Shown one piece after another: positions 23,003-55,753 of a stretch of 64,000 nt of DNA (position 1 is the first letter of the stretch; each line of letters starts with the position of its first letter). The notes under the pieces were generated by a model that searched no databases, was not told the origin of the DNA, and saw nothing but the letters and a program-made list of their open reading frames with translations. The translations under genes were made by a program, and so were the position numbers. Where the stretch lies: IMG/VR virus record IMGVR_UViG_3300020020_000026, positions 1 to 64,000 of that record; one strand, written 5' to 3'. The stretch is from a virus.

Positions 23003-23045
23003 GGTCATCGACGGTAGGACAACCTGTCCTACTATCGATGAACTT
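23001..23045. promoter_or_regulatory. Extended inverted repeat centred on operator-like site TAGGAC-AACCT-GTCCTA (23015-23031)
   Basis: CATCGAcgGTAGGACA-ACC-TGTCCTACtaTCGATG, upstream of the PEP-CTERM gene. Confidence 0.65.
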
Positions 23046-23089
23046 TCGTTCATCAGCCAGATGCATCTGGCTCAACAGGAGTACTTCCA

Positions 23090-23881
23090 ATGTCGCTTAA
23101 GCATTTGTTAGGAGGGCTGGCCGTACTGGCCGCCACGACACTTCCCGCCAAGGCCGTCCTTCTTGGGAACGATGCCCAAGATTGGAACTTGGCAGGAGCG
23201 GCAACCCTGCAACTCACCAACGCAGTGCCGACAGGGCAGCAGACGAGCAACATCCCCTGCATCATCTGCGGTGCCCATCAGCCCCAACAGCCGAATTTGC
23301 TGGGATATAACTGGTTCGGCAACACCGGCAACGCTAACACGGTCAGCTTTTTCTCGACCGCTGCAGTACCAACTGGTCCGGGTGGACTTGCTCAGGATAC
23401 ACTCGGGACCGGCTACTCACTTCTGCCCGGCAGTCCGTTGTTGACGGCGTTGCAGGGCAACCTGTCGTTCACCATCGGCGTCGATGTGAACGATACCAAC
23501 ACGCCGCAGACGTTGGAGTCATTCTGGATTTTGAACCTGACTGACCACACCGTTTTGGCCGTGTTCTCGCCAAATCCTCTCGACGGTCAGCTACTGATCG
23601 CCGCGAACAACGGAACGGGTTTCCCCGATATGACTCTTAGCTTGTTGGGTGGCTCGCTGATCAATCTGTCGAACGTCGATCCGAATGATACGATCCTGTT
23701 CTTCGCAAGGATCACGGGCGCGAACGACGGGCCGGACTCCTTTTTTATAGTCCCGCAAGTGCAGGCCGTTCCGCTTGGACCGGCCGCCTGGTACTTCGGT
23801 GCCGGGTTGTTCGGACTTCTCGCACTCCAAAGGCGGCGTAAGCGCAAGCTGCTTGAACAGCAAGGCGCAGTCGCAGCGTAG
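23090..23881 (+). CDS. VPLPA/PEP-CTERM-type exosortase target surface protein
   Basis: Signal peptide; C-terminal AVPLGPAAWYFGAGLFGLLALQRRRKRK (motif + TM + basic tail); AGGAG RBS. Confidence 0.85.
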   Translation: MSLKHLLGGLAVLAATTLPAKAVLLGNDAQDWNLAGAATLQLTNAVPTGQQTSNIPCIICGAHQPQQPNLLGYNWFGNTGNANTVSFFSTAAVPTGPGGLAQDTLGTGYSLLPGSPLLTALQGNLSFTIGVDVNDTNTPQTLESFWILNLTDHTVLAVFSPNPLDGQLLIAANNGTGFPDMTLSLLGGSLINLSNVDPNDTILFFARITGANDGPDSFFIVPQVQAVPLGPAAWYFGAGLFGLLALQRRRKRKLLEQQGAVAA

Positions 23882-38368: not shown

Positions 38369-39580
38369 TTACAGCCCATGCCTCACGCCGTCGATAACCA
38401 CTGACGCCGCGCCGCTGCCAACGAGGTGGTGAACGTCAAAGATGGCCTGATCGCCCTCATTGTAGTATCCGATACAGGATACGCAGGCAGAGTTGCCCTG
38501 GTTGCCTGAGTGCTGCGCGTTGTTTTGCGAAAAGTAACCAGCGGGGCCGGTGATACGAACACTGTAGGCGCTCTCCGATGTCACACCGCCATAACCCGGC
38601 ATGTATCCGCTATCCATGCACATGGTCCACCAGCCGGTTTCGCCAGCACCGCATGTGAACACGCCGTCCTGGAAGTACGACGTTCGCATCGTGTTTCTGA
38701 GGTTCATGTAGCTTGGCGCGGCGCGGACCCAGGTGCTTTCCGGGACCGAGAAGAAGCCGCTCCAGCAAGCGAAGCCAGCCGCGTACTGCGGATAGCGCAC
38801 GCTCAGCATCTGCATCTTGGAGCCGTCGAAGATCACCCAAAGGATCGCGCCGGGCCTGATATCACCGTTCTGCAAATGCGCGCCGTCTGGCCAGGTAAGG
38901 TAGTAATTGCCAACGGAGTCGATTTGCAGGGTGGTTGTGGTGGTGTTGGCATGCACCGCCATGATCAGGAACGGGTCGCCAGCAACGAGTGACGTGATCG
39001 TCGGATTGAAGGTGGCATACAAGTTGTTCGGTCCGCCGCCCGCGACCGCATAAGGAATTTTCGTCGTGTAGTTGTTGATGGTCGAGCTTACGCCGGGAGG
39101 GCCATTCCAGTTCTCGATCTGCCAGCCCGCGCCGTCGAAATTCAGGTTGAGGATTTCGCCGGTCAGGAAGTCGCCGCTCTGGCACGCCGCGCCGTTGGCG
39201 CGAATGATCGGCCACGCGCCCAGGTCATTGAGAGCTAGCGTGCTGGCACCAACGCAGTCGTATGCGACCTTGATCCGCACCACCATTCCAAAGAACAGGG
39301 CTATTGGAGAAGGGTTGAGCGTTGCCACCAGCGCGCTCGCCGTGCCGGTGTCGAGCGCCGCATGGGTGAGCCACGGGTTGCGCTGCGTCGCCTGCCAAAG
39401 TTGCTGGAGGTTGTCGTTTGTCGGCACCATCCCGGCAAACTTGACGCTGTTGACGATCTCGCGCTGGGTAAACTCGATGCTCTCTGCCGGGATGATCGAG
39501 CCCTGGATGCCAGCGGATGGATTGCCGTTGATATAAGGTCCATCCACGCTGTTGATGCCATACGGCGGATTGTACTTAAT
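38369..39580 (-). CDS. Baseplate-proximal tail fibre protein; probable ATT start
   Basis: AGGAGG-CAACA-ATT AAG TAC AAT CCG CCG TAT GGC; PYINGNP...GSIIPAESIE..QREI...LQQL; follows the gp48-like gene. Confidence 0.8.
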   Translation of the reverse strand: MKYNPPYGINSVDGPYINGNPSAGIQGSIIPAESIEFTQREIVNSVKFAGMVPTNDNLQQLWQATQRNPWLTHAALDTGTASALVATLNPSPIALFFGMVVRIKVAYDCVGASTLALNDLGAWPIIRANGAACQSGDFLTGEILNLNFDGAGWQIENWNGPPGVSSTINNYTTKIPYAVAGGGPNNLYATFNPTITSLVAGDPFLIMAVHANTTTTTLQIDSVGNYYLTWPDGAHLQNGDIRPGAILWVIFDGSKMQMLSVRYPQYAAGFACWSGFFSVPESTWVRAAPSYMNLRNTMRTSYFQDGVFTCGAGETGWWTMCMDSGYMPGYGGVTSESAYSVRITGPAGYFSQNNAQHSGNQGNSACVSCIGYYNEGDQAIFDVHHLVGSGAASVVIDGVRHGL

Positions 39581-39598
39581 TGTTGCCTCCTATTTGAT

Positions 39599-40312
39599 TC
39601 ATGGCGTGCCCTGCATCGGCCCGCCCAGTGACAGTGCAGTGAAGTCTGGGACGATGTCGGTGTGCGCCGGTTTCCAGCGTTCAAGCAAGCAAACGATCTC
39701 GGTCGGAATGCCAAACTCAAGGTGATGATCGACGCCAACCTCGCCGCCGCCAGGTCCAGCGCGAAACCACCGCAAGCTGATCTGCCCGATGTTGACGGTC
39801 CAGACGAAGCGCATCTCTGGCGGTCCGAGATACCAGCGAAAATTGTCTTCAGGAAACGGACGGGTGTCGCCAACCCTGCTGACGCCGCTCATATACGGCG
39901 CGTACTCTCGAATGACGACATCCGGGTATCCAACCCAGTCCAACAGGTCGATAAAGAACTGCCGCGATTGGCCCCCGATCATCGTCATGATCAGGACCAA
40001 CAGCTTCTGGCGCTCCGCAATCGACGTGGCCGATGGGAAGCAATCGTCGGGAAGCCCCCAGTTGCGTTCCCAGTCGGGGAGCAATTCCGTCGTCAGACGC
40101 GGATCGCTTTCCCGGTCCAGGAGATCGCAAGCCCTGCTGTCGAAAAAGCCCCAGTATTGCGCCAGCCCGTTGCAGGCCCGCTCCAGCGTCGAGCCGGGGT
40201 TCTTCGGCCACGCCTGCCCTTGCGGCAACAATGTCAGGAAAGCCTCGGCGTAGTCGTCCCCTGTTCGGCAAACGTGCCGGTCGCGCGGGAGAGGCTTGTC
40301 TGGGACTGTCAT
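39599..40312 (-). CDS. Baseplate protein (Mu gp48/YmfQ-like)
   Basis: LLPQGQAWP...ESDPRLTTELLPDWERNWGLPD...KPAHT. Confidence 0.9.
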   Translation of the reverse strand: MTVPDKPLPRDRHVCRTGDDYAEAFLTLLPQGQAWPKNPGSTLERACNGLAQYWGFFDSRACDLLDRESDPRLTTELLPDWERNWGLPDDCFPSATSIAERQKLLVLIMTMIGGQSRQFFIDLLDWVGYPDVVIREYAPYMSGVSRVGDTRPFPEDNFRWYLGPPEMRFVWTVNIGQISLRWFRAGPGGGEVGVDHHLEFGIPTEIVCLLERWKPAHTDIVPDFTALSLGGPMQGTP

Positions 40313-41388
40313 AGAAACATGAGGTTACCGAGAACTGCCATGTAGCCCGGCGCTGGCATGATGTCGTCCTCGGCGTTGACGAGATGGAAGGAGGTCACGT
40401 TCGGCGTGTTCATGATCGCTGACGACTTCCAGGCCGCGAAGATCGTCTGGCCAGGCGTCGCCAGCCGAAGCAGCATATCCTCCAGGCTCTTCTCGATTTC
40501 GGCTTGAACCGACAAGCCGCCAGGCAACAGGTTATCGACCGTGACATGGACCGGGTGCGGAATCGGTGACATGACGAAGATATCTTTCACCGCGACCGGC
40601 CGCATGATGTCGAGGTAAGCCGCAACGTCATCGATGTCCTGTTGCAGCGGGAAGCCGCTGTTGTAGGAACGCAGCTCGTCCATCATGAAGCGCACGGTGA
40701 CGGTGCCGATCCCCATCTCCAGTGGATAGCACCAGGCCCGCGTGACGCCAGGCACGGCGAGCGCCCAGTTGATGTAGTCGTGCGCCGCCCCGCCCATCGG
40801 CGGCTGTCGAATGCGGTGCAAGACGCGGGCGCGGAGGTCGTCGTCGTTCTCGACATCGACGCCGCCGGTCATCTCTACGACGGTCACCGTATTATCGACG
40901 CCGGGGATGGTCTCGTTCAAATCCAGGATGTCGCCCGTGGCGCGATTGCCGAGAGCCCCGGCCGACAGCGCCCGCGCCGTTGTTTCGGTCGCCGCCAGGC
41001 TGACGGTGGTTTCCGCCGTGACCTCGTAATTCATTTCGTCGGTGCCGGTCAGCCGCGCTCCCACCGGAATAACGGTGCCCTCGGTCCCGGTGAACGCGAC
41101 GACACCCTCCGCGAAGGTTGCCTGCTTGCGGCCGATGGTGCCGTCAGAATTGACCAGCCAGATCGCGCCGTGCCGATCCAGCCACTCCGTCTCTGCGGTG
41201 TCGGGCAGAAGCTGCAGCGCCAGCCAGTCGATGTATTGCAGATTGAGGTGGGCAAGCGCGCCCTGGGCGTCAGACAGGACGCGAAGCACTGAGTTTGGAA
41301 CGCTGGCGTCGGCACCAGGAAGCGACGCCCGGATGTTGTCCCGGACGAGCGATCTGATTTCACGAAGGCTCGGGGTACTCCAAGGCAT
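40309..41388 (-). CDS. Baseplate J-like wedge protein (Mu gp47)
   Basis: LLPDTAETEWLDRH...GGVDVENDDDLRAR...GGAAHDYINWAL. Confidence 0.9.
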   Translation of the reverse strand: MPWSTPSLREIRSLVRDNIRASLPGADASVPNSVLRVLSDAQGALAHLNLQYIDWLALQLLPDTAETEWLDRHGAIWLVNSDGTIGRKQATFAEGVVAFTGTEGTVIPVGARLTGTDEMNYEVTAETTVSLAATETTARALSAGALGNRATGDILDLNETIPGVDNTVTVVEMTGGVDVENDDDLRARVLHRIRQPPMGGAAHDYINWALAVPGVTRAWCYPLEMGIGTVTVRFMMDELRSYNSGFPLQQDIDDVAAYLDIMRPVAVKDIFVMSPIPHPVHVTVDNLLPGGLSVQAEIEKSLEDMLLRLATPGQTIFAAWKSSAIMNTPNVTSFHLVNAEDDIMPAPGYMAVLGNLMFL

Positions 41389-41389
41389 G

Positions 41390-41896
41390 TCAGGCTCTTT
41401 CGATATCGTTCCAGAGGATTTGGAATCGCATTTCTACCGGCCTGTTCGGGCCGCGATAGATCACGACAGCCGCCTCGATACGCTCGACGCTGCCGCGCCA
41501 GACCTCGACATCGAAGCTGGTCGCAATCCGGTTGTCTACAAAGGGCTGGATTGCCTCCCTGATGTACTGCTCGACACGGACGACGGTCGCGCCTTCCGGG
41601 TCTTCCGGCCCCACGATCTTGGAGCGCCTCAACAGCCACAGCTTGGTGCCTATCGGCCAGCCGTTGAACAAATCCTCCGCCTCCAGGTCGCCCCACCATC
41701 CGGCGCGGTCGGTGCTGTCCGGATCGGGCAGGATGTCGTCAGGAGACGCGAGCCGGTTCGTTCCAAGCGCGACGATGACAGCCGTCGCCAGCGCCTGGGT
41801 GTCGTCCAGCGTTCCGTCATCGAGCAGAAGCCAGTCGATGGGAATCGAGTATCTTGGAAAGGCGTCCGGGCTTTGAAGCAGACGGATATCTGGCAT
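41390..41896 (-). CDS. Baseplate protein (Mu gp46-like)
   Basis: LATAVIVALGT...RAGWWGD...IGTKLWLLRRSK. Confidence 0.9.
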   Translation of the reverse strand: MPDIRLLQSPDAFPRYSIPIDWLLLDDGTLDDTQALATAVIVALGTNRLASPDDILPDPDSTDRAGWWGDLEAEDLFNGWPIGTKLWLLRRSKIVGPEDPEGATVVRVEQYIREAIQPFVDNRIATSFDVEVWRGSVERIEAAVVIYRGPNRPVEMRFQILWNDIERA

Positions 41897-42918
41897 TATG
41901 TCGTCACCCTGATGAAGTCTTTGGCGCGGATGACTCCGCTGACATTGAGGTTGCCGGTTATGTTGAGGTCGCCAGTGATGAAGATGCCGTCCTCGGTGAT
42001 CCTGATCTTGTCCTCAAGCGCCCGCTTGCGCGTGAGGAAAGCTTCCTGCTCTGCGCTGAGCGGCGGCGGCGATCTCTTGACGTACTCGGCAACATCAGCG
42101 TCGTCGCCCGGCGGCGGCATGGCCGTGCCAGCAAGCCACGTTCCATCGGTCGGCTTGTAAGCCTCCTTGGTGATGCGGAGGTTGCCGATGATATGCACGT
42201 CGCCGTCGAAGTAGTGCGCCCCGGCCTTGCGCTTGATTGCGGTGCCCTCCATCGCCAGCGTCTTGCCCGCCTTGGCTGAGATGTCCGCGTCGTGCGCCAT
42301 GTCCATCTTCTTCTCGCCGAGATCGAGAAACCGCTTGCTCTCCTTCTCGGCCTTTTCATAGCGCTGCTTCTGGCCGGTCTTCTTCTGGTTTCCGCCGCTG
42401 GACGATGACGACGAACTGCCAGTGCCACCGCTGTCGCCCTCGGCATACTGGGTGGGTCCAGCCCCTTGCTGCTGTTGCTGTTGCTGCTCGACCTTGTGCA
42501 GCGCGATCCTGATCTTCTTGTTGTCCAGCCCGGTCAGGAAAGCGCCGTCCTTGTTGAAGTGGAATTGCTGTTGCTGGTGGTCGAAGAACGCCACGTCTCC
42601 AGGCTTCAGCTCCTTCAACCGAAAGCGCCGGTCGTCCATCACGGTCGCGACCGGAAACGATCTGTTGCCGCCCAGGAACGACAGGTAGGCCTCGGCGCAT
42701 TGTTCTATCACGCCGCCTTTGCCCTTGGTCGCTGGCATGACGACGGAGGTGAAGCCGTAATTCTGCGGGCTTTCGATCTTCGAGCGGTTCTCGCCGCCCA
42801 TGAACATTCCCTTCATCTCTTGCATCAAGGGATTGTCGCTGACCGAATCGACCAGAGCGCGAGCCCCGCCGCTGGTGTAAGCGGTGAACGCCTGTTGCAG
42901 TGGGTTTTGACGATGCAT
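41896..42918 (-). CDS. Baseplate spike (Mu gp45/gpV-like)
   Basis: QNYGFTS...GGNRSFPV...DDRRFRLKELKPGDVAFFD. Confidence 0.85.
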   Translation of the reverse strand: MHRQNPLQQAFTAYTSGGARALVDSVSDNPLMQEMKGMFMGGENRSKIESPQNYGFTSVVMPATKGKGGVIEQCAEAYLSFLGGNRSFPVATVMDDRRFRLKELKPGDVAFFDHQQQQFHFNKDGAFLTGLDNKKIRIALHKVEQQQQQQQGAGPTQYAEGDSGGTGSSSSSSSGGNQKKTGQKQRYEKAEKESKRFLDLGEKKMDMAHDADISAKAGKTLAMEGTAIKRKAGAHYFDGDVHIIGNLRITKEAYKPTDGTWLAGTAMPPPGDDADVAEYVKRSPPPLSAEQEAFLTRKRALEDKIRITEDGIFITGDLNITGNLNVSGVIRAKDFIRVTT

Positions 42919-42930
42919 TAAGCCCCCTCT

Positions 42931-44037
42931 TTATGTGCTGACTGTCGGGTCGGGCGGTGGCGATCCTGGCCCTTGCTGCGGGTTTCCAAGCTGGTAGAGC
43001 TTGTCGCCCAGCATCCACGGCAGGACGCACTCAAGCACTGTAATCGTGCCGCCCCTGGTGTCCTGGGTGAAGGTCGCGGTCTGTATCTTCATGCCCATGT
43101 TCAATGGGCACATTGGCGAATAGATCATGACGTTATCGCCGGTCTGCCAAAGCGCGCCACCATCGCGCAGCCAGCCTTGCACCGTGACGTTGCAGCGGAT
43201 TTGCGTGCCGTCAGCCTGCAGCGCCTCGTAGTTGGCGCGCATCTGCGCCTCGGCGGCGTTCTTTGCCGGTTGCTCCAGGACGATCTCCTTGAAGCGATAC
43301 CATCCCTTGAGGGCACCCTTTGTCCTGGCCATGATCGCGTTAACCGCAGCGCCAAACCTGTTGTCGCTAACGGCATATTGCCCGTGCAGCTTGTAGAGGC
43401 TGTACATCAGTTCGTTGGAGAAGATGCACGTCATCTTCAGGATGTTCTGGCCTTCGGTCAGTTGCTGCACGACAGGCATCGAATGTTCGCCAATCAGCAG
43501 CAAGTTGCCGAGATGGTCCGATCCCAGCGTCGCGTTACGCATGCGCGCGACTTTGTCGAGGAAGTCGAACACCAGCTCGCCAGGCTGCGATTGCAGCCGC
43601 TCAAATTTGGTCAGGTCCACCTTGCCGATGACCTTGAGCATTCCGCCTGCATCGGTCACGGCCTTCATGGCCGACTGGATAACGGTCATGTTGTCGAAAT
43701 TATTCTTGTTGTCCTCGCTGGGAATGCTGGACGTAGACGCCGCCCATTGCTTACCGACACCTGACAACTGCACCCCGTGTTCGGTGCCAGCGTAGCCAAC
43801 TTGCCGCTGGGTGATGATTCCGGTCACCGCGAGCTGGCCGCCAAGTCTGATTTCGCACGGGTCGCCAGGTTTGAATTTCAATTCGCGATATAGAAAATTC
43901 GAATGGGTGCCTTCAGCCGCAGTGAACCGGAATGTTGGCCACCCCTCCTGCCACCGATGCTGGACGTAAACCGATTCCCAGTCCTGAAACGATACGCCGC
44001 TAACAGTAAGCTGCGCGACCTCATGCGGGTTCGGCAT
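42931..44037 (-). CDS. Baseplate hub (Mu gp44/gpP-like)
   Basis: FQDWESVYV...PGDPCEIRLGGQLAVTG...VTVQGW...LW; position. Confidence 0.85.
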   Translation of the reverse strand: MPNPHEVAQLTVSGVSFQDWESVYVQHRWQEGWPTFRFTAAEGTHSNFLYRELKFKPGDPCEIRLGGQLAVTGIITQRQVGYAGTEHGVQLSGVGKQWAASTSSIPSEDNKNNFDNMTVIQSAMKAVTDAGGMLKVIGKVDLTKFERLQSQPGELVFDFLDKVARMRNATLGSDHLGNLLLIGEHSMPVVQQLTEGQNILKMTCIFSNELMYSLYKLHGQYAVSDNRFGAAVNAIMARTKGALKGWYRFKEIVLEQPAKNAAEAQMRANYEALQADGTQIRCNVTVQGWLRDGGALWQTGDNVMIYSPMCPLNMGMKIQTATFTQDTRGGTITVLECVLPWMLGDKLYQLGNPQQGPGSPPPDPTVST

Positions 44038-44038
44038 T

Positions 44039-44710
44039 TCAGAACGCCAGGGCTCGTCCCTCGCGTGGCGCGAAGGCGGGATGCACGACTTTATTCTCTG
44101 CTCTTAACTGGTCGGCCCGCCCTGCGGTGTCGTACAGCCGGTGCGACAGAACCAGGGTCGGACGCGGCTTGGCGAATCGATAGGACAGCATTTGCGGAAG
44201 CGGATGAGCCGTCTGGTACAGGTGGAATGTCACGGCAGCGTGCAGCGTGACCAGCGCTCGATACGCCACCAGCACCATCTCGTCGGCGGCAGTCTCTTCG
44301 GCCGGGTTGAATGCTGCGTTGACCTCGTCCCGCACCTTATCGACATCCTGTCGGCTGACGAACGTCATATCGACAATGTTCATCGACATATGCTGCAAAG
44401 CGAAACAGACGCAGCCGTTCTTGAGCAGTGTCGCGACCAGGGAGTACGGATTTTCCAGAAGAATGCGCTCCCGGATATGATTGAACTCGCTCAGCGTCGC
44501 CCCGGTCGCCCGCGCCAGCTCGAAGCATTCGGACAGCTTTTCACCGATAGTATTGTTGGCGATGTAGCTTTCCGCCCCCGCCTTGATGTCCCCGCAAGCA
44601 CGCCGCAGAGCTGAGCCAGACATTCCCTTCTGGTCGTTCGATGTCGCGAGCAGCAAATCGGCAACAAGAGTTACAATAGCTGCGCCCTCGCTGATGTCCT
44701 GATGGATCAT
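44039..44710 (-). CDS. Mu gpN C-terminal-like protein
   Basis: PTLVLSHRLYDTAGRADQLRAENKVVHPAF. Confidence 0.75.
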   Translation of the reverse strand: MIHQDISEGAAIVTLVADLLLATSNDQKGMSGSALRRACGDIKAGAESYIANNTIGEKLSECFELARATGATLSEFNHIRERILLENPYSLVATLLKNGCVCFALQHMSMNIVDMTFVSRQDVDKVRDEVNAAFNPAEETAADEMVLVAYRALVTLHAAVTFHLYQTAHPLPQMLSYRFAKPRPTLVLSHRLYDTAGRADQLRAENKVVHPAFAPREGRALAF

Positions 44711-45354
44711 GCTCCGACTTGCCCCTGGCTGGCTTCGTGGGCCTTCTTCAGCTCAGACGCGATCCAGCCTTTGTTCGCCTCGTTGAGCTGACTGACCGCA
44801 TAATAGACCCCAGCCTTGCTGTTGCGTTCGCCGGTCGCGGGGGCTTTGCCGTATTCGGTAAAGCTCATATCGAATGAGCAATAGCCACCCTGCCGGTTTT
44901 CCTCCGTGACACGATAGCGCGTGCAGACCGCCTCGATCAGCCCAAGCAGCGGCAACTGAAGAATGGCCGGGCCTTCTGTTTCCAGCGCCAGGATCAGCGC
45001 ATCGCGCGCCGTGATGTAGTTCTTCTTCTGCAAAACACTTTCGCCCTCTCTCGGATAGACGACGATGTAGCCGCGCACGGTGAACTCGCGCTGGCGGCGG
45101 CCCATATCCTCGGCATACGGCAAGTCGCGCTTCGGGAATTCATGCGACACGATGCGACGTGCAGATTCGCGCACTGCTGTATCGACATGAAACCGCGCGT
45201 TGCGAAACTTGGCTGGCATCCACCGGCCGCGCCAGGCCTTGCCGGACTCCAGCTCCAGAATCTTGGTGGCTCTGGCGGGCCTCAACCCTTTGCCGGATGC
45301 GACGGGTTGAGAAAGCTGTTGCGGCTGCATTGCTGGAGGAAGGACTGGAGGCAT
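44707..45354 (-). CDS. DNA circularisation protein N-terminal domain (Mu gpN-like)
   Basis: AKFRNARF...HEFPKRDLPYAEDMGR...RDALILALETEGPAILQLP. Confidence 0.85.
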   Translation of the reverse strand: MPPVLPPAMQPQQLSQPVASGKGLRPARATKILELESGKAWRGRWMPAKFRNARFHVDTAVRESARRIVSHEFPKRDLPYAEDMGRRQREFTVRGYIVVYPREGESVLQKKNYITARDALILALETEGPAILQLPLLGLIEAVCTRYRVTEENRQGGYCSFDMSFTEYGKAPATGERNSKAGVYYAVSQLNEANKGWIASELKKAHEASQGQVGA

Positions 45355-45364
45355 GAGGGGTTAC

Positions 45365-47782
45365 CTAGATGTTCTGATACAAATAATTGTCGGCGGTGTC
45401 GTAGGCGTTCGGCCCGCTCTGGGTGTTCTGACCGGCCTCTGATCTTTGCAGCGGCGTGTTCTGGAACAGCTTCGCGCGAGCCGATCCCTTTGGCTTGGCA
45501 GGCGCTCCAACATCCACCTTAACAGTACCGTCAGCCCTAACTGACGTTGTGTCCGAGAGAGCCTTGCGGTCGAGCGCCTCACGGTCCAGGTCGCCCGGCG
45601 TGAATGGCGCGGCTTCCGGCGGTCCCGTGGGAGCATCGCCCGGCGTAAAGACCGGAGCCTCCGGTATCCCGGCGACCTTGGATTCCTGCGCGGCCTTGCT
45701 TTGCGCGTAGCGCTTCGCGCCCTGCGGCGTGAGCTGGGTGTGAAGATGCTTGCCGGTCGCGTAGCCGACTGGATTGCGCACCTCATCTCTGAATTTGTAG
45801 TCCCGGCCCTCGACCATGCCGTGCCTCGCGAATATTTCGCGCTGCTTGGCCATCGCGGCATCGACCTGAGCCGTCGTCCTGGCCCGCGTGTCGAATGCCA
45901 GGGCCTTGGCATGGGCTGAATTCGGGTTTCTCTTTGTCAGCCTGTGATCTGGGCCGCGATAGCCGGATGTCGTCGTCATCCCGGCTTCCTGTACCTCGCC
46001 CATGATCGACTTCAGACCGGCAATCCGGTCCTTCATGCTGCCGGTGAATGGAGCCGAATCAGTTGGAGCTGAAGCTGCGCCACTAGGAGCTGGAGCCGCG
46101 CTCGGAGCCGTGCCGCCACTGCTGGGAGCTGGAGCCGCGCTCGGCGTGCCGCCGCCGCCGCTGGGAGCCGCAGTGTCGCCGCCGGTCGCCGGGGCCGCCG
46201 GTCCGCTCGGAGCTGCCGTTGTGCTGCCGCTGGAGGGTGGCTCGGACGACGGCGAAGAAGGAGCCGCAGTGCCGCCGCTGGTCGGAGCGCCGGTCGGAGC
46301 GCCGCCGGTCGGACTGCCTGCGCCGCTGCCGGTGCCTCCGCCACCAGGTGGCGAATAGCTGGCCTTCTGGACGCCGCCGCCCTGGCTTCCAGTCGAGCGA
46401 TCCTCCATCCGCTCGAAGTAGTTGTTCAGCCTGTCGAGCTGGCCGGTCAGCTTCTCGGTCTGCTCGGTGTTTTGTCCGGTCTCGTCAATCAGCTCGTCGG
46501 TCGTAAAGCTGGCGGGCTGAAGCAGAGGATTCGTCTCGCCGGGCGGCGTGTAGCTTTGCGGGGTCGCGCCCGGCATGTCTGGCTGGGTCGCATCACTGCT
46601 CTTCAAGGCTCCTAGCTTGTTGAGCCCTTGAATAACCGTGATGACCTGGCCAAGCAGCGGGATACCCTTCAGCAATTCAACGAGGTTGACCCCAAGCCCA
46701 GGGAGCTGTTCATCGATGTAGGTGATGCCCCTGCCGATAGCGCCGAAGAGATCATCCGCAAGCCTCAACGCCCCAAGCAACACCGGCAATCCAGCGGAGA
46801 GGGCCGAGAACGTGATGCCCTTCAACTTGAGACTTATTTCGCCCCAGATTTCCGAAACACGTTTACCAGACGCCGCGACCTCCGCCATCTCCCTGGCCTT
46901 CTCAGGGCTAACCGGCTTCAGCTCCAGCTCCATGCCTTCGCGCGTCTGGCCGAAATCTCCCCAGAATTGATTTGCGAGAGCCGCCGCTACGCTCTTGCCC
47001 CAACCGGCTTCCAGGGCTTGCTTCTCTAGCGCTTTGCCGTACTGCGCGATCATCTGCCGCGCCTTGGCGGGCTCGACGGCGGCTAGCTGGTTTACCCAGT
47101 TGGCATCGACGCCCTGGCTGATCAGCTTCTGACGGAGCTGCGAATTATTCTTGTACAAATCGAACTGCGCGGCCTGGATGCCCTGGAAACTTCGAGTGAT
47201 CAACTCGGCCGAATGCCCAAACGCCTTCGCCTGATCCTGTGCATACTTCAGCTCGGCAAAGCTCATGCCCAGCGTGCGCGCCGTCCTGCCAAGCTGGTCC
47301 ATCTCCTTGGCGAACTTGAACACCGATATGCCGTAGGCGACGGCGACCAGGCCGATAGCCGCAACGCCAATGGCAAGCCTGCCAAGGCCGACAACCGCAG
47401 CCTGCGAGACGCCGGGGATATTCTTCATCGACTCGCCAAGGCGGTTAACGCCTTCGGCTGCGTCCCACAGCCCCACCGCCAGCCTGGGCAAACCAGAGAG
47501 GCCTTGCTGGGCCGCGTTCCCCATCTGGGCCAGCGAACGGCCGGTGTCAGCAGCGTTGCGCGACAGGGCGCTCAGCTCTGTGCTGATCGTTCGCAGCCTG
47601 GGTCCAGCGGTCAGTGCTGCGTTACCCAGAGCGGTCGCGCTGGCGGTAGCCTGCGTAAAGCTGGTCGTCATCTGACCGGCGGTCTGGGTCAGGTTCACCA
47701 GCTCGGTGCGAATTTTCGCGAGCCCAGTGGACGCATTGTCCACCAGGTTTACTGTCAATCTTAGTTCTTCAAACTCAGCCAT
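45365..47782 (-). CDS. Tape-measure-like protein 2 with peptidase M15-like domain
   Basis: MAEFEELRLTV helical N-terminus; TSGYRG...SAHAKALAFD...HLH. Confidence 0.75.
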   Translation of the reverse strand: MAEFEELRLTVNLVDNASTGLAKIRTELVNLTQTAGQMTTSFTQATASATALGNAALTAGPRLRTISTELSALSRNAADTGRSLAQMGNAAQQGLSGLPRLAVGLWDAAEGVNRLGESMKNIPGVSQAAVVGLGRLAIGVAAIGLVAVAYGISVFKFAKEMDQLGRTARTLGMSFAELKYAQDQAKAFGHSAELITRSFQGIQAAQFDLYKNNSQLRQKLISQGVDANWVNQLAAVEPAKARQMIAQYGKALEKQALEAGWGKSVAAALANQFWGDFGQTREGMELELKPVSPEKAREMAEVAASGKRVSEIWGEISLKLKGITFSALSAGLPVLLGALRLADDLFGAIGRGITYIDEQLPGLGVNLVELLKGIPLLGQVITVIQGLNKLGALKSSDATQPDMPGATPQSYTPPGETNPLLQPASFTTDELIDETGQNTEQTEKLTGQLDRLNNYFERMEDRSTGSQGGGVQKASYSPPGGGGTGSGAGSPTGGAPTGAPTSGGTAAPSSPSSEPPSSGSTTAAPSGPAAPATGGDTAAPSGGGGTPSAAPAPSSGGTAPSAAPAPSGAASAPTDSAPFTGSMKDRIAGLKSIMGEVQEAGMTTTSGYRGPDHRLTKRNPNSAHAKALAFDTRARTTAQVDAAMAKQREIFARHGMVEGRDYKFRDEVRNPVGYATGKHLHTQLTPQGAKRYAQSKAAQESKVAGIPEAPVFTPGDAPTGPPEAAPFTPGDLDREALDRKALSDTTSVRADGTVKVDVGAPAKPKGSARAKLFQNTPLQRSEAGQNTQSGPNAYDTADNYLYQNI

Positions 47783-50628
47783 CAGATTGACATCGCTTCC
47801 GGTTCAGCCACCTTCGTTGTTCTCGAAGTCTCGGTGTCCTTGAACGCACCACTGCCCTCGACCTCGACCTTAGTGCCAGTCGGCCCGGTAACCTCGGCCT
47901 TCAGCTTTCCTTTGACATCCGGCTTCTGCGAATCGGTGAGCGCGCTGCGGTCGAGTGTTGCGCGATCTGGCTCTTTCTTATTTGCAGCGACAGCGGCAGC
48001 GGCGGCGGCTGCGTCGGCGGCGGCGATCTCCTGCTCTCGCTTCTGTCTCCATGCAGCGGAGCCAGCGTAATCCAGATCGTTAAAACGCTCTTTGTTGATA
48101 TTGACGCCAACCCCACCTCGCTCGTAATTCGGGTCTCCCCTGCTGCCCTGGTCGGTGTGGCTTTTAATGACGTTGCTGCCGCCAACCGCTTGATCGACCA
48201 GCTTGTTCATAGCTGCAGCGTAGGCCGGGTCTTTCATCAGCTCTAGATGCTTAGCCAGGTGCCCGTGTTTAACCGGCCCATAGAAGCTCTCGGACGGGCT
48301 TCTTCCCAGTATCATCTCCCTAAGCGTTTTCGGCGGCAGACCTCTCTTCGCACGAGACTCGTTAACCATCTCAGTCCGGTTCATCAGGCTTTCAACAACG
48401 GCTGGACCAGCTCCGGGATTTTCGGCGCTGAGAATCGCACCCACCAATTTTCTGGTTTCCGGGTCTTCCAATTGCTTCTTAAATCCAGCGCGCTTCGCAG
48501 CCAGAAACGCCGCCCCACCACCGCCGCTGGGAGTAGTCGCAACGCCCTCGACCCTAGCGGGACCGGCCTTGTCACCCGTCGCGACGTTGCCTTCCGCCGC
48601 TCGCTTCGCGCGCACCTCCGCGACCGTCGCGTCGCTCGCGTAGCGCAAGTCCATTCCTTTGACGCTGCGCGGCTTGACGCCGTACTGGTCGGCAAACCAT
48701 GCGGTGTTCGTCTTCGGATCGTATGACCCCGGCACGATGGTCATGACGTGACCGCCGGTCTGGCCCTTGGGAGCGCGCCCGCTGTAGCTTGCGATCATGC
48801 TGCCGAAGGGACGGTTCGGATTGTTGATGTCCGCCGCCTTCTGCGCTTCACCCCAATCATTCCAGTTGGTGGCAACCTTGCTGTTCGCAGTCGGCGGCTT
48901 GAAGCCTGCCGACATCACGTACTTGGTGGCGACGATCCCGCAGGCCGGGCCACTCATCTTGTAGCCCTTGGTGTCGAACAGCTTCTTCAGCCCGGCGGTG
49001 TCACCCGCGCGACCCAGCCGCTCGACCTCCTTCATCGTCTCGGGATCGATGCCCTTGCCAGCCTGATCGACCATCCCCGCAGGACCACCAGGACCAGCGG
49101 GACCAGAGGAACCAACCCCATAGCCGCCCGTACTTGCGCCGCCGTAACCTCCTCCGCCGCCGTAGCCGCCGCCTGCGCTGGCACCAATGCCGCCTCCACC
49201 AGCGCCACCACCCGTGCCCTCCATGCGCTCAAAGAAAAGATTGAGCCTTTCGAGCTGACCGGTGTTCCTCTCGGTCTCGGTCGAATTGCGGTCGGTCTCC
49301 TCGCCCAGGGTGAAGCTGGCGCGCTGGAATAGCGGACGCCCTCCACCCTCATCGCCGCCGTCGTAGCTCTGTTTGCGCCAGAACGGTTGCTGGTTCGGGC
49401 GCGTGCGGTTCGGACGAGGCGCGGGTGCGGGCTCCGCGTCGCTCTTTTGACTACCGTACCGAGAGAGCCCGTCAAGCAAAGTGATTGCTGGGCCAAGGCC
49501 CGGCACCAGCTTCAGGATGTCAACGAAGTTGACCCCGATCTTTTTCAGGTGCGCATTGACCCAGCCGATGGCCTTTCCGATGCCGGTAATGATCGGATCG
49601 ATAAGTCTCAGCAACCCCAGCAAAGCCGGAAGACCGGCAGAGAGAGCCGAGAATGTCATCTTCTCCAGCTTGAGACTGATCTCGCCCCAGATAATGGAAA
49701 CCTCTTTGCTCTGGTCCTCGACCCTCTTGTACTCAGCCGCCTTCGCCGGATCGTCAGCCAGCTTGATCGCCAGCTCCATATCCTCGGCGTTCTGCCCGTA
49801 CTCCTGATAAAACTGGTTCATCAGGGCGGCGGCATTGCTTGCGCTCGCGCCCCTTGCCAGTGCCTGCTTCTCAAGCGCCTTGCCATAGCGCGCGATCATC
49901 TCGCGAGCCCTGGTCGGATCGGCCAGCATGAGCTGATTGATCCAGCCCGCATCAACGCCCTGCGCCAGCAACTTCGCCCGGAGCTGAGAATTGTTTTTGT
50001 AGAGGTCGAACTGCGCAGCCTGGATGCCTGCGTAGCTGCGGATAACGCCCTCGGCCGTGTAGCCGAATGAGGTCGCCTGATCTTGCGCGCTCTTCAATTG
50101 GGCAAAGCTGATGCCCAGGGAGCGCGCCGTTCGGCCAAGCTCGACCATCTCTCTTGAGAACCGGAAGACCGACACGCCGTAAGCCGCAATCGCAACGCCA
50201 ACAGCGGCGACGCCAAGAACAACACCGCCGATGGCGAGTACCGCAATCCGCGACGCTGGCACCAGCTCTCCCAGCGCAGAGCCCATGACTTGGACGCCCT
50301 GCGCCGCGTCATACAGGCCGACAGCCATCCGTGGCAGTCCGCCGATTCCGCGATTGACCGAAAGGGCCATCTGAGCCAGCGCCTGGCCGGTCTGGGCGGC
50401 GTGACGCTGCAGATCACGCATCGCCTGATTGGCGGTGCGAACGTGAGGTGCCGCGTTTAGCGCAGCGGTGCCAAAGTTGGTGACACCGCCAGACGCACTT
50501 CGCAGCCCTGTCGCCGCATTCGCCGCCGCTACACCCAGCCCGCCGATCTCACCGCGCAGTCTTGCAAGCCCCGCAGACGCGCTGTCTGCGAGGGTGACGG
50601 TAAGACGTAGTTCTTCAAACTCCGCCAT
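47782..50628 (-). CDS. Tape-measure-like protein 1 with CHAP/NlpC-like and SleB-like hydrolase domains
   Basis: MAEFEELRLTV; ACGIVATKYV...WNDWG...GHV; ILSAEN...AVVESLMNR; follows the tail chaperones. Confidence 0.75.
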   Translation of the reverse strand: MAEFEELRLTVTLADSASAGLARLRGEIGGLGVAAANAATGLRSASGGVTNFGTAALNAAPHVRTANQAMRDLQRHAAQTGQALAQMALSVNRGIGGLPRMAVGLYDAAQGVQVMGSALGELVPASRIAVLAIGGVVLGVAAVGVAIAAYGVSVFRFSREMVELGRTARSLGISFAQLKSAQDQATSFGYTAEGVIRSYAGIQAAQFDLYKNNSQLRAKLLAQGVDAGWINQLMLADPTRAREMIARYGKALEKQALARGASASNAAALMNQFYQEYGQNAEDMELAIKLADDPAKAAEYKRVEDQSKEVSIIWGEISLKLEKMTFSALSAGLPALLGLLRLIDPIITGIGKAIGWVNAHLKKIGVNFVDILKLVPGLGPAITLLDGLSRYGSQKSDAEPAPAPRPNRTRPNQQPFWRKQSYDGGDEGGGRPLFQRASFTLGEETDRNSTETERNTGQLERLNLFFERMEGTGGGAGGGGIGASAGGGYGGGGGYGGASTGGYGVGSSGPAGPGGPAGMVDQAGKGIDPETMKEVERLGRAGDTAGLKKLFDTKGYKMSGPACGIVATKYVMSAGFKPPTANSKVATNWNDWGEAQKAADINNPNRPFGSMIASYSGRAPKGQTGGHVMTIVPGSYDPKTNTAWFADQYGVKPRSVKGMDLRYASDATVAEVRAKRAAEGNVATGDKAGPARVEGVATTPSGGGGAAFLAAKRAGFKKQLEDPETRKLVGAILSAENPGAGPAVVESLMNRTEMVNESRAKRGLPPKTLREMILGRSPSESFYGPVKHGHLAKHLELMKDPAYAAAMNKLVDQAVGGSNVIKSHTDQGSRGDPNYERGGVGVNINKERFNDLDYAGSAAWRQKREQEIAAADAAAAAAAVAANKKEPDRATLDRSALTDSQKPDVKGKLKAEVTGPTGTKVEVEGSGAFKDTETSRTTKVAEPEAMSI

Positions 50629-50812
50629 CGTCCATCGTCGCGCGCTCGCGTTTCTTCTGATGCGCTAGTTCGATGGTGCGCTCCAGGTGGACGCGAACCT
50701 CCGATGCAGGCATCTCAAGAAAAACGACGGGCGAGATTTTGTAGAAGTCAGCGAGCCGATAGCAGTCGAGGACCGTAGTCCCTACCACGCTGTCGGGTCC
50801 GGGATAAAAAAA
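50615..50812 (-). CDS. Tail chaperone GT extension reached by -1 frameshift
   Basis: T7 slippery run (A7 at 50806-50812 on +); -1 frame reads YPGPDSVVGTTVLDCYRLADFYK...DGGV*. Confidence 0.75.
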   Translation of the reverse strand, partial: FFYPGPDSVVGTTVLDCYRLADFYKISPVVFLEMPASEVRVHLERTIELAHQKKRERATMDDGGV

Positions 50813-51207
50813 CCGCGTAACCGATAGGCGCAGCTATTCCAGTCCCGTGGGTCCATCGCCTCGATGAACGGAGGTAGAATGCCGGATAGCGCCGACATCA
50901 TCGTCGTCATCTTGCGCTCCAGGATGACAACGTCGCCGTCCTGGTTGACGTGACACGGATTGCCATAGCGGTTGATGTCGCCGCCGGTCGGCTCGCGGAA
51001 CGACAGCTCATGCACCGTCTCCGCACCCTGGCGGACGCCGCGATGCAACAGCTTCACCTTGACCGGCCAAAGGTCTTTCGGCTGCTCAAGAACTTCCGGC
51101 TCTTCCGGCATCGGAGGCAGTTGATGCACGGGCTCGGGCGCGGGCGTCTCGGGGAGAGGCTCGGCGCGTTGCTTGACGAACCCCTCCCGGTTGCTTGGCT
51201 TGTTCAT
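50782..51207 (-). CDS. Tail assembly chaperone (Mu gp41-like)
   Basis: ELSFREPTGGDI...IEAMDPRDW...FF; lies between tube and TMP. Confidence 0.85.
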   Translation of the reverse strand: MNKPSNREGFVKQRAEPLPETPAPEPVHQLPPMPEEPEVLEQPKDLWPVKVKLLHRGVRQGAETVHELSFREPTGGDINRYGNPCHVNQDGDVVILERKMTTMMSALSGILPPFIEAMDPRDWNSCAYRLRGFFIPDPTAW

Positions 51208-51231
51208 ACCCTCTCCTCTTGTCGAACGAAC

Positions 51232-51633
51232 TTATCGAGCGAATTGCTGGACCGGCGACACCGGGTTGTCGATGGCCATCTCCTCGCACCACAGGCCCTC
51301 CCAGCGCACGCGCACCTGGCCGTCGCGGGCGTTGGCTTCAAGCGCCGCCTTGCACGTTGCGCCAATCAGGCTGTACTGCCAACCGTTGGCGAGCTGCGCG
51401 ACGACGTTGACATCCGTGGCCCCGTCGAGGTCTTCGAGGGCGAGCCCCCGCGTTGTCGAGATGTCACCCTCGATGAAAGGCACCCTCGGCAACTCTTGAT
51501 AACCATGAACGCCATCCTGGCCAGCGAGCATCGTCCGCTCGACAGGCGAAGGGCTGACAGTGAAGTTGCCGCGCAGCGCCATCATCTGCGAGCCAACGTA
51601 CAGGTATGCAATACCCGCGAATCTCTGTGCGAT
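51232..51633 (-). CDS. Tail tube protein (Mu gpM-like); probable ATC start
   Basis: AGGAGG-CTACA-ATC GCA CAG AGA TTC GCG GGT ATT; GQDGVHGYQELPRVPFIEG...LANG. Confidence 0.85.
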   Translation of the reverse strand: MAQRFAGIAYLYVGSQMMALRGNFTVSPSPVERTMLAGQDGVHGYQELPRVPFIEGDISTTRGLALEDLDGATDVNVVAQLANGWQYSLIGATCKAALEANARDGQVRVRWEGLWCEEMAIDNPVSPVQQFAR

Positions 51634-51684
51634 TGTAGCCTCCTATTGTTTCGGAAGTGTCAGCGTAAGAAAGCGACGCGGGGA

Positions 51685-53253
51685 TTAACCCGCGCCACCG
51701 GCAGCAAGACGAACACCAGCTTCGCCGATGTCTCGGTCTACCCCACGGTCGTACTGGAGGCGGAACTGACTTAACACGGCAAACACACGTAATTGGTTAA
51801 TCAGGTCCGGTGGATAGAGGACGTTGACGCGATTTGGGTTGTTCGGATCGCGCTCGACAATCAGGTTGTTCTTGAACGCGCGGGTGTCCTCGACCAGCCC
51901 GTTGTACTCATCCATCCGGTATTCCGCGACCAGTTCGGCCTTGAGAATGCCCGGCGTGACGATGGCCTGGCCGGGGCCGAAGCGGGTGCCGTCGTTGGCC
52001 AGCTTGTGCCTCGGGAATTTCGAGGTGATCGCCTGACGCTGATTGCGCATCAAGCGGGCGAGCGTCGCCAGCGTTGTCACCAGCTCGTAGGCGTCGTCGC
52101 CCTGGCCGTACAGGTTGAGCTGGTAGGTCGTCGTTTCCCGAAGGATCATCGGGGCACCTTCGCTGCCCATCTCCTGGGTCGCGATGCCGTAGCCTGCGAG
52201 AGTGTTCAGCTCCTGCCGGTTAAAGCGTTCGTGCAGCGGCGGGGCCAGGATGCCGGTGAGCGCCAGCGTCTGCAGCGGGCGCGCGGGATCGTTGGTCAGG
52301 CCGCGAGCGGCCTTGGCTGTGTAGGCCGCCGTCCACTCGTAGACCGGCGACGGGGCATCCAGCTCGACGCCCATGATGGAGGTCACGCCGGAATTCCTGG
52401 TTTCGCCAAACGCGATCATGCTGGCGTAGTCGCCGCGCTTGGCCGAGAAGATGTGACCATAGAGCTGGCGCATCCAGCCCCAGCGGCCACTGTCACCGAA
52501 ACCGTACTCGGTTTCCCAGGCGTTCAGGCTGGTGCTGTCGGTGAACGGCAGAGCAACGTATTCGAAATTGCGTTCGCCAAGATTGGAGATCGCAGTATCG
52601 AAAACCGGCACGCTCGCGCCGCCTGACATCATGCCAAGGGTGGAATAGGCGACGGTGATACCCTTCGGAAGCTCTTCGCTGCCGATGCGGCCGTAGTGGC
52701 TGTCGCGCATATCGATGTCGTTGCCGGAAGTGCCCTTCCAATTGCACGTCAACGTGCAAACGGTCGGGCCACCCACCGATGTCACCGGCAGATCGAAGTC
52801 CTCGTTGATCGCGGCGGAGATCGCGACATGGATTTGGTTGACGGTGTCGGCCGCGCCGATGTTGACCGGCACATGGTGGCCGCCGATGTAGAGGTGGATG
52901 GTTCCCGCCTCATGGCCACCCGCGTCCGCCGTCACGGTAATCGTGCCCGTGGCTGGGGTGCCAGCGACAGGCTCCGCGACCGGAAGGCCCCAGACTTCGT
53001 GCGCGAAATTGTTGGCGAAGAACGCCTGGAACATCAGCGCCAGGTGCGAGCCCTGGCCAAACTGCTTGTTGGCCTGGGCCTGCGTGCCAATCGGAATCGG
53101 CACATTTGGCACGCCCACGCCATCGGCGGTCATGATGCCGACAAGCAGGGCGGGCTGGCGGATCGTCCAGATGCCAGCCTTGGATGGATCGACCTCCACC
53201 CAGTAGAGCGGCAATTTCCAGTTAGCGGGAATACCGGCGAAAGAGACGGGCAT
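51685..53253 (-). CDS. Tail sheath protein (Mu gpL-like)
   Basis: PLYWVEVD...FGQGSHL...DPARPLQTL...KFPRHKLANDGT...PPDLINQLRVFA. Confidence 0.95.
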   Translation of the reverse strand: MPVSFAGIPANWKLPLYWVEVDPSKAGIWTIRQPALLVGIMTADGVGVPNVPIPIGTQAQANKQFGQGSHLALMFQAFFANNFAHEVWGLPVAEPVAGTPATGTITVTADAGGHEAGTIHLYIGGHHVPVNIGAADTVNQIHVAISAAINEDFDLPVTSVGGPTVCTLTCNWKGTSGNDIDMRDSHYGRIGSEELPKGITVAYSTLGMMSGGASVPVFDTAISNLGERNFEYVALPFTDSTSLNAWETEYGFGDSGRWGWMRQLYGHIFSAKRGDYASMIAFGETRNSGVTSIMGVELDAPSPVYEWTAAYTAKAARGLTNDPARPLQTLALTGILAPPLHERFNRQELNTLAGYGIATQEMGSEGAPMILRETTTYQLNLYGQGDDAYELVTTLATLARLMRNQRQAITSKFPRHKLANDGTRFGPGQAIVTPGILKAELVAEYRMDEYNGLVEDTRAFKNNLIVERDPNNPNRVNVLYPPDLINQLRVFAVLSQFRLQYDRGVDRDIGEAGVRLAAGGAG

Positions 53254-55129: not shown

Positions 55130-55753
55130 CTAGACCCAGAGCCTGGTGTAGTGCCCAAGCAAATTTGCGACGGTCTCCTTGGCCTGCGAGCTGACGCTTC
55201 CGCCGCTGTTGCCACTGGAGCCGCCGCTGCTCGGGTTGTGAAACATCACGCGGCTTTCCTTGTGCGAGATCATGCGCACGCCCGTGAGCGCCGCTGACGC
55301 CTGCTCGCTCTTCGACGCGCCAACCAACAGGCTGCAGCAATGCTTCAGCGCGTAGGGAGCCTCTTGCGGCAGATCAAAGCCGCCAGTGTAGGTGACAACG
55401 ACCGGCTCGTTGTGACTGGAGAAGATCGAGAGTTTCCCCGATCCTTCTTCTAACTCCCAGTCGATATTGGCGAGGCCTGCAGTAGTAACGCTTTCGATGT
55501 CGTCCTCCTTCACAGGCCAGTGCGTCAGGAAGCAGCGCCGGGTGCCTTGCTCTCGCCATGTCTCCCGCACTTTCTGGCGCGCGAACACGCGGTTCGCCAT
55601 CTCAGAAACAACTGCGGAGTTAACTTCGATCAGCCACGTCAGTTGCTCGTCGCTGGCGGCGTCGTTGATGCCAAGCGCTGTCTTCGCCTCTGCCAAGGTC
55701 ATCAGCTTGAAGTCGTCCGCTGGGGTTAGGACTTTGACGGTGACATCCGCCAT
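55130..55753 (-). CDS. Head-tail connector (gp6-like)
   Basis: LMTLAEAKTALGI...VVVTYTGGF..P. Confidence 0.8.
   Translation of the reverse strand: MADVTVKVLTPADDFKLMTLAEAKTALGINDAASDEQLTWLIEVNSAVVSEMANRVFARQKVRETWREQGTRRCFLTHWPVKEDDIESVTTAGLANIDWELEEGSGKLSIFSSHNEPVVVTYTGGFDLPQEAPYALKHCCSLLVGASKSEQASAALTGVRMISHKESRVMFHNPSSGGSSGNSGGSVSSQAKETVANLLGHYTRLWV

Follow-up and report, generated by a model that had tools for sequence, protein, structure and literature searches.

Genes that begin at near-cognate codons behind strong Shine-Dalgarno (SD) sequences are already known, among them infC, pcnB, the Staphylococcus aureus genes cvfC1 and ccpN, and orf28 of phage TP-J34. The AUU starts of infC and pcnB are sensitive to IF3, and that of infC is conserved among orthologues and autoregulatory. 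Both are named as AUU-start genes of Escherichia coli, infC encoding IF3 itself, in a study in which AUA, AUC, AUU and CUG initiated at 1–2% of AUG and an AUC-started protein carried an N-terminal Met (bioRxiv 10.1101/063800). The AUU and AUA starts reported from S. aureus all have extended SDs and reach ~10–30% of AUG (PMC13009471). A weakened start codon tends to be compensated by a stronger SD (PMC5622118; Belinky, Rogozin and Koonin 2017). For phages, an AUU start has been described in orf28 of Streptococcus phage TP-J34, whose region was re-sequenced to exclude an error, and a GTC start has been annotated for ORF35 of Ralstonia phage RsoM1USA (PMC3952083, PMC6389784). Here we analyse the tail tube and tail fibre genes of a virus from a soil metagenome, IMG/VR record IMGVR_UViG_3300020020_000026, both of which appear to start at near-cognate codons, ATC and ATT, behind one shared leader. 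The window, that is, the whole stretch of DNA analysed, is the first 64 kb of this 82,286-bp record, with a guanine-plus-cytosine (GC) content of ~60%.

The two genes resemble infC and pcnB, as these are described in the study above, in that a near-cognate AUH codon (H, any base except G) would be the sole start of a real gene, at a working distance from an SD and with a lowered output. They differ from infC in that ATH is absent from 83 tube and nine fibre relatives, the genes encode virion structural proteins, and no regulator is evident. S. aureus cvfC1 (AUU), ccpN (AUA) and citZ (AUA), as reported, likewise combine a weak start with an unusually strong SD. However, the starts in S. aureus were located by ribosome profiling with retapamulin and are conserved among staphylococci, whereas the starts described here are deduced from sequence, lineage-specific and from another host group. 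The trade-off between start codon and SD, in the form given by Belinky, Rogozin and Koonin (2017), is also seen here: tube relatives with GTG or TTG starts have stronger SDs, and the SDs of the ATH genes are close to the strongest in the genome. That account covers AUG, GUG and UUG, whereas in our case the series reaches AUC and AUU behind one exact leader. TP-J34 orf28 and RsoM1USA ORF35 are phage genes annotated with non-canonical starts as well, but as described they are single cases, with no common leader and no recurrence across phages. In a literature search, which left supplementary files aside, no paper was found that systematically describes phage virion genes with ATH starts behind a fixed leader. 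What is new is that two tail genes, including that of the high-copy tube, carry one leader followed by ATC or ATT, and that the exact unit recurs in unrelated soil phages.

Start positions of the tube and fibre genes

Our analysis indicates that near-cognate initiation at ATC and ATT, enabled by an optimal SD leader, is probably real, and that it represents a trade-off between start codon and SD rather than a demonstrated switch. The ATH codons lie where homologues start, the N-terminus is conserved, there is no alternative start, and the leader is both strong and recurrent.

The tube and fibre sites have in common the 17-mer AATAGGAGGCWACAATY, and the positions of the ATC and ATT sites, of this 17-mer and of the AGGAGG 5 nucleotides (nt) before the codon agree with those of the original prediction, from which the present analysis set out (Table 1). 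After the start codon, the minus strand reads GCA CAG AGA TTC GCG GGT ATT in the tube unit and AAG TAC AAT CCG CCG TAT GGC in the fibre unit. It had also been predicted that the first in-frame ATG or GTG would be found well downstream and would lack an SD, which is the case in both genes. The in-frame TAG that had been noted four codons upstream of each start is present (at 51645–51643 before the tube ATC), but it is part of AATAGGAGG, which falls in frame automatically at such a spacing, and it is no independent feature. Direct reading of the sequence from the upstream stop to the ATH codon revealed no ATG, GTG or TTG in any frame in either gene. The sheath stop TAA (51687–51685) lies 51 nt upstream of the tube ATC, and the stop TGA of the Mu gp48-like gene (39601–39599) lies 18 nt upstream of the fibre ATT, each in the same frame as the codon that follows it.

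Table 1. Positions of the two initiation units, of the genes they head and of the neighbouring genes in the window (SD, Shine-Dalgarno sequence; E, expect value).
Feature	Coordinates	Strand	Details
Tube initiation unit, AATAGGAGGCTACA-ATC	51631..51647	-	AGGAGG 51644-51639, 5-nt spacer, ATC 51633-51631
Fibre initiation unit, AATAGGAGGCAACA-ATT	39578..39594	-	AGGAGG 39591-39586, 5-nt spacer, ATT 39580-39578
Tail tube gene	51232..51633	-	133 codons from ATC, plus stop
Tail fibre gene, putative Mu gp49 position	38369..39580	-	403 codons from ATT, plus stop
First canonical in-frame codon of tube, ATG	51583..51585	-	16 codons downstream of ATC, without SD
First canonical in-frame codon of fibre, GTG	39545..39547	-	11 codons downstream of ATT, without SD
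Tail sheath gene	51685..53253	-	phrog_165, E 1.6e-157; Pfam Phage_sheath_1, Phage_sheath_1C
Mu gp48-like baseplate wedge gene	39599..40312	-	PF10076, phrog_203

The tube protein matches Pfam PF10618 (Tail_tube) with an E of 7e-28 and 97.2 bits against a cut-off of 23, its residues 3–117 aligning to positions 2–116 of the 117 in the profile. With this full-length match above the gathering score, and with a further match to phrog_185, it belongs to the Mu-type tail tube family. Its gene adjoins those of the sheath and of the tail assembly chaperone. The solved 118-residue tube protein 9khy aligns from residue 7 to 92 with positions 6–92 of the profile, at a weak E of 0.013. Alignment of homologues had been put forward as a check on the two starts, and it places both N-termini at the ATH codons and not at the downstream ATG or GTG. 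Tube homologues begin MAQ[RK]FAG, and the window protein read from ATC begins MAQRFAG. The marker LRGN(F) stands 19–21 residues from the N-terminus in 116 of the 120 best tube homologues and at 19 in the ATC-started window protein; in the remaining four it stands at 9 in one, and three were unscored (two with an LRGD variant, one with an insertion). Since codons 2–16 differ almost only synonymously from those of the 13 nearest relatives (4–11 synonymous and 0–1 non-synonymous differences), the N-terminal extension is under purifying selection, as a selected part of the protein. A start at ATG 51585 would drop 16 conserved residues. Three tube homologues in the protein database (P0090, P0101 and P0109) have gene calls that lack about 11 N-terminal residues; they may be contig-end fragments or further missed unusual starts.

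For the fibre protein, residues 2–81 match positions 2–79 of the phrog_17588 profile, and further matches were obtained to phrog_1858 and phrog_4900 (tail fibre/tail), while no Pfam family matched. Together with the PHROG matches, the place of the gene behind the gp47/gp48-type baseplate genes supports the putative assignment to the Mu gp49 position, and the N-terminal 50–80 residues of its product are common to otherwise different proteins. Relatives of the fibre begin MKYN[PQ]PYG: two homologues of 403 amino acids (aa) open with MKYNPPYGI and MKYNQPYGI, and the window protein read from ATT opens with MKYNPPYG. The public gene call starts at GTG 39547 and gives a protein of 392 aa (P0121), which is 11 conserved residues short. 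When the window fibre was compared with the fibre of the nearest tube relatives, residues 1–50 alone matched (56–60% identity), and the window fibre is a swapped module relative to them.

The common leader is not expected by chance. The 16-nt core would occur 0.34 times in the window at up to three mismatches, and two occurrences were found at none. Comparison of 51 gene-start leaders from the 82-kb record (1275 pairs) showed that tube and fibre are the most similar pair, with 13 of 14 positions identical against 11 of 14 in the next best. Their identity stops at 17 nt. Each ATH leader forms an SD/anti-SD duplex of −10.2 kcal/mol, which is tied second strongest beside the 27 canonical-start structural genes scored. 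In the whole record, the tube and fibre genes are the only two open reading frame (ORF) 5′ ends that have a full AGGAGG but no canonical start at 3–10 nt. A scan of strong SDs at ORF 5′ ends for further ATH starts in the record returned only the tube and the fibre, and a third AGGAGG-N5-ATC, at 55496–55509, is internal to a 207-aa ORF.

A search for an RNA structure common to both units found none: around the tube start, the SD pairs weakly with a CUUCC upstream of it (region z −2.18), and the fibre region folds like shuffled sequences (z 0.05). Between sheath and tube, at 51672–51699 on the minus strand, there is an 11-bp GC-rich hairpin whose loop contains the sheath stop TAA and behind which UUUCUU follows. 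Folding of the surrounding 117 nt is better than that of shuffled sequences (z −2.18), and the terminator scan made no call there. The hairpin could be an attenuator or an mRNA-stabilising element.

Start codons among relatives and recurrence of the leader

A canonical codon occupies the position of the tube ATC in 77 of 80 IMG/VR loci (ATG 67, GTG 6, TTG 4). Of the other three loci, two start at an ATG two codons upstream and one is too short to read. In genomes of GTDB, all six tube loci have ATG. At the position of the fibre ATT, nine relatives have ATG (7), TTG (1) or GTG (1). The nearest tube relatives are only ~82–86% identical at the nucleotide level, as measured from differences in tube codons 17–133, and the ATH changes are undatable for this reason. 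The relative L006, whose tube protein has 95% aa identity, carries the same TAGGAGGCTACA leader followed by TTG. When IMG/VR was searched for each of the two exact leaders regardless of the start codon behind it, the tube leader was found in the L006 contig alone and the fibre leader in none. Among 65 unique tube leaders, those preceding non-ATG starts form the stronger SD duplexes (mean ~ −9.4 vs −7.7 kcal/mol, n=9 vs 56; one-sided Mann–Whitney p 0.0017), a difference that is indicative only, as the sequences are related.

The exact 17-mer is present in 20 IMG/VR contigs. In four of these (L106, L109, L123 and L118; GC 0.58–0.63) it heads real ORFs that have no canonical start for at least 13 codons. 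In six, the ORFs that follow it have 18 codons or fewer, as chance would give. The remaining ten form one family in which ATG directly follows ATT. These ten contigs (L104, L105, L108, L111–L115, L121 and L122) have a GC of 0.43–0.50 and read ...ACA ATT ATG TAC..., the ATG being the evident start, at 8-nt spacing.

The ORFs of L106, L109, L123 and L118 encode virion-type proteins of phrog_644 and phrog_6121, in three families. In the L106 family, 100 of the 120 best homologues have the start M-A-x-[YF]-N-K. In the family of L109 and L123, ATG is found behind other leaders in 32 of 34 loci, a count that leaves out one further locus whose match began at residue 55; ATY (Y, C or T) is found solely in the two members that carry this leader. 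In the L118 family, the alignment begins within the first 10 residues in 140 of the 150 relatives listed. In all three families, the homologues start at the position of the ATY codon. L109 (ATC) and L123 (ATT) are 78% identical over 594 nt of coding sequence and have unrelated upstream DNA, but a block that extends from the leader to the second base of the start codon is identical at 19 of 19 nt. Since ATY has persisted in this pair, selection at least does not seem to oppose it there. This pair is the only case in which ATY is conserved between homologues, and it belongs to another family than the tube or the fibre.

The records of the four contigs share almost nothing with the window phage, and each has one ATY gene. 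An open frame at ~23041–23880 of the window (plus strand) has a match of 261 residues at 43% identity in G009, the record of L123; it is one of very few proteins in common with this otherwise unrelated record.

As a canonical control, the 14-mer leader followed by ATG, GTG or TTG was searched for and found in 108 IMG/VR contigs. Among the 80 contigs listed, there were 73 real gene starts (ATG 62, TTG 9, GTG 2). In those of the listed contigs with a GC of at least 0.55, the leader is followed by ATG in 7, TTG in 4 and GTG in 2, as against four ATY gene starts. This indicates that the 14-mer is a common strong initiation region and that in high-GC phages weak codons follow it unusually often, although the numbers are small and partly redundant.

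Proposed mechanism and rival explanations

We propose that the tube would be translated from AUC and the fibre from AUU by ordinary SD-directed initiation, presumably with fMet-tRNA. The AAUAGGAGGCWACA leader, with its perfect 6-nt SD and 5-nt spacer, would set the P site on the codon and offset the weak codon-anticodon pairing. The ATH codons would be recent, lineage-specific replacements of ATG, GTG or TTG that are tolerated thanks to the strong leader and are perhaps used to trim output. The leader-plus-ATY unit may act likewise in other high-GC soil phages. We tentatively entertain a broader possibility as well, namely that this sequence is a 'licensing' leader of high-GC soil phages, behind which the start codon would be nearly free and AUC and AUU would be regular starts of virion genes, the unit possibly being mobile as a block. 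If this is true, a whole class of phage structural genes would be systematically mis-annotated, and SD-dominated initiation could override start-codon proofreading in some hosts.

Several other routes to translation were tried and rejected. A phage-encoded helper finds no candidate, as the searches for tRNA and tmRNA in the window and the entire 82,286-bp record, and for IF3_N and IF3_C domains in the record, found none. Coupling of termination and reinitiation is not general across the six cases, because G008 and G010 have no ORF of at least 60 codons ending within 120 nt upstream of the unit. Read-through of the stop codons to give fusion proteins is implausible, with two stops in series and with sheath and tube separate in all relatives.

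A number of results weigh against near-cognate initiation behind the leader. Conservation of the ATH starts, which the original prediction had proposed to look for, was not found, ATH being present in 0 of 83 tube and 0 of nine fibre relatives. Since it is unconserved in both families, its persistence under selection is unproven for the tube and the fibre. The pattern GGAG-N3-10-ATH and then AQxFAGxA, sought in 241 million metagenome records, matched six times but never in a tube gene, and none of 401 genomes from the genus to which the best prophage relative belongs contains the exact 17-mer. The 14-mer leader also precedes canonical starts and is not specific to ATY. The statistics on SD strength and on the canonical control come from related sequences and small numbers. 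A start working at 1–2%, the E. coli figure, would be hard to square with a tube protein needed in many copies. With regard to a possible assembly artefact, considered below, none of the listed pieces of the independent assembly shows the tube site. Finally, initiation of translation at ATC and ATT is inferred from the sequence, as are its efficiency and any benefit.

The explanation that survives best beside near-cognate initiation, and is compatible with it, is the spread of a cassette. In this case, short-patch recombination at the boundaries of modules would have carried copies of the leader and ATY from one gene start to another and from phage to phage, with ATY as a hitch-hiker. The exact 17 nt head five gene families in five unrelated records with dissimilar flanks, ATY in the L109 family is confined to the two members with this leader, and the window fibre, as a swapped module relative to the nearest tube relatives, would fit such exchange. 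However, 17 nt is very short for recombination, the identity of the matches is given by construction since they came from an exact 17-mer search, and convergence on one optimal leader explains the same data. We regard cassette spread as possible but rather doubtful.

It is unlikely that the ATH codons reflect a recent loss of the start codon. They would then be deleterious or knock-down changes in a defective or low-fitness variant, perhaps a prophage, which makes little full-length protein or makes truncated products from ATG 51585 and GTG 39547. Each family contains a single ATH member, E. coli initiates weakly at near-cognate codons, and the closest genome match is a Bradyrhizobium prophage. 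Relatives with ATG also co-occur in the sample: the X2 contig leaves the window sequence at 51621 and there carries an L069-like leader and ATG, so that a close relative with a canonical tube start coexists in the same soil sample. Two independent hits on start codons in an intact compact module are, however, unexpected from neutral decay, which is disfavoured because it should have left many stop codons elsewhere. Moreover, the leaders in front of the two hits are the most alike in the genome and close to its strongest, and in four further phage records a conserved start consists of the same leader plus ATY. Neither downstream start has an SD, and their use would remove residues that are under purifying selection.

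The original prediction had favoured deliberate translational control of tail assembly via IF3 or a phage factor. The common sequence would then be bound as an operator by a phage or host factor, or would sense the IF3 level, and in this way set the timing or the extent of tail assembly. The tube and fibre leaders are the most similar pair of the genome, the AUU starts of infC and pcnB respond to IF3, and a 19/19-nt block has been kept between L109 and L123, all of which such control would explain. It is nevertheless very unlikely in view of the other data. ATH is not conserved, and the record has neither an IF3 domain nor a tRNA; the identity of the two leaders ends at 17 nt, with no RNA structure in common; and the leader is common with ATG, GTG or TTG. 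Control of a set of tail genes is at odds with the four other phages, in each of which the unit heads a single virion gene, differing in function. A strong leader that tolerates or compensates a weak start codon fits the data better than a switch.

An artefact of sequencing or assembly, in which the third base of a true ATG was miscalled as C and as T at ~8-fold coverage, for example by a motif-dependent error after GGAGGC, is most improbable: the depth of the source runs is indeed ~8-fold and the Logan contigs break near the tube start (51583), but the Logan assembly of runs X1 and X2 of the source sample reproduces 39400–40875 and 39532–40361, including the fibre site, with 0 differences, two errors exactly on the third positions of start codons are very unlikely, the leader plus ATY, with both C and T, is found in four other assemblies from other samples, and the 108 contigs with the leader and a canonical start (ATG in 63 of the 80 listed) indicate that the motif does not generally corrupt the next G. 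A Logan piece from X4 (39501–39743) has four differences. The earlier argument that independent sequencing errors are unlikely is supported by these results, the 17-mer context being beyond coincidence.

The structural module and implications of the start codons

Pfam and PHROG searches showed that a compact myovirus structural module occupies the minus strand between ~63.4 and 34.5 kb. Its genes are a protease/major-head fusion, portal, sheath, tube, tail assembly chaperone, two tape-measure-like genes, baseplate hub, a wedge gene (phrog_6), the Mu gp48-like gene, the fibre gene and further fibre-like genes. No broken frames were found in the module, and the family matches are full length; for instance, sheath residues 1–499 match positions 1–493 of the 493 in the profile. 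The host is likely Bradyrhizobium-like, since among genomes the tube has its best relative, with 94% aa identity, in a prophage of Bradyrhizobium sp. SRL28.

Two further observations were made in this module. The 698-aa protein encoded at 59059–61155 (minus strand) matches the head maturation protease phrog_80 over residues 62–298 and the major head phrog_617 over residues 36–698, and is a protease/capsid fusion. Two long tail genes in tandem, at 45365–47782 and 47782–50628 (minus strand), each start M-A-E-F-E; weak matches link one to a tape-measure family and its neighbour to a 'lytic tail protein' family, and they look like paralogues.

The finding by itself reveals no new regulatory system. 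Its practical consequence is that gene finders shorten both proteins: the fibre is short by 11 conserved residues in the public call, and the tube would lose 16. Shortened gene calls from missed ATH starts probably affect other uncultured phages. Studies of initiation fidelity gain a compact, directly testable element, in that one exact leader, followed by AUC or AUU, recurs across unrelated phages. The trade-off between start codon and SD would be extended beyond GUG and UUG, and an AUC start of a major virion protein argues that an optimal SD leader can largely replace the start codon in some hosts.

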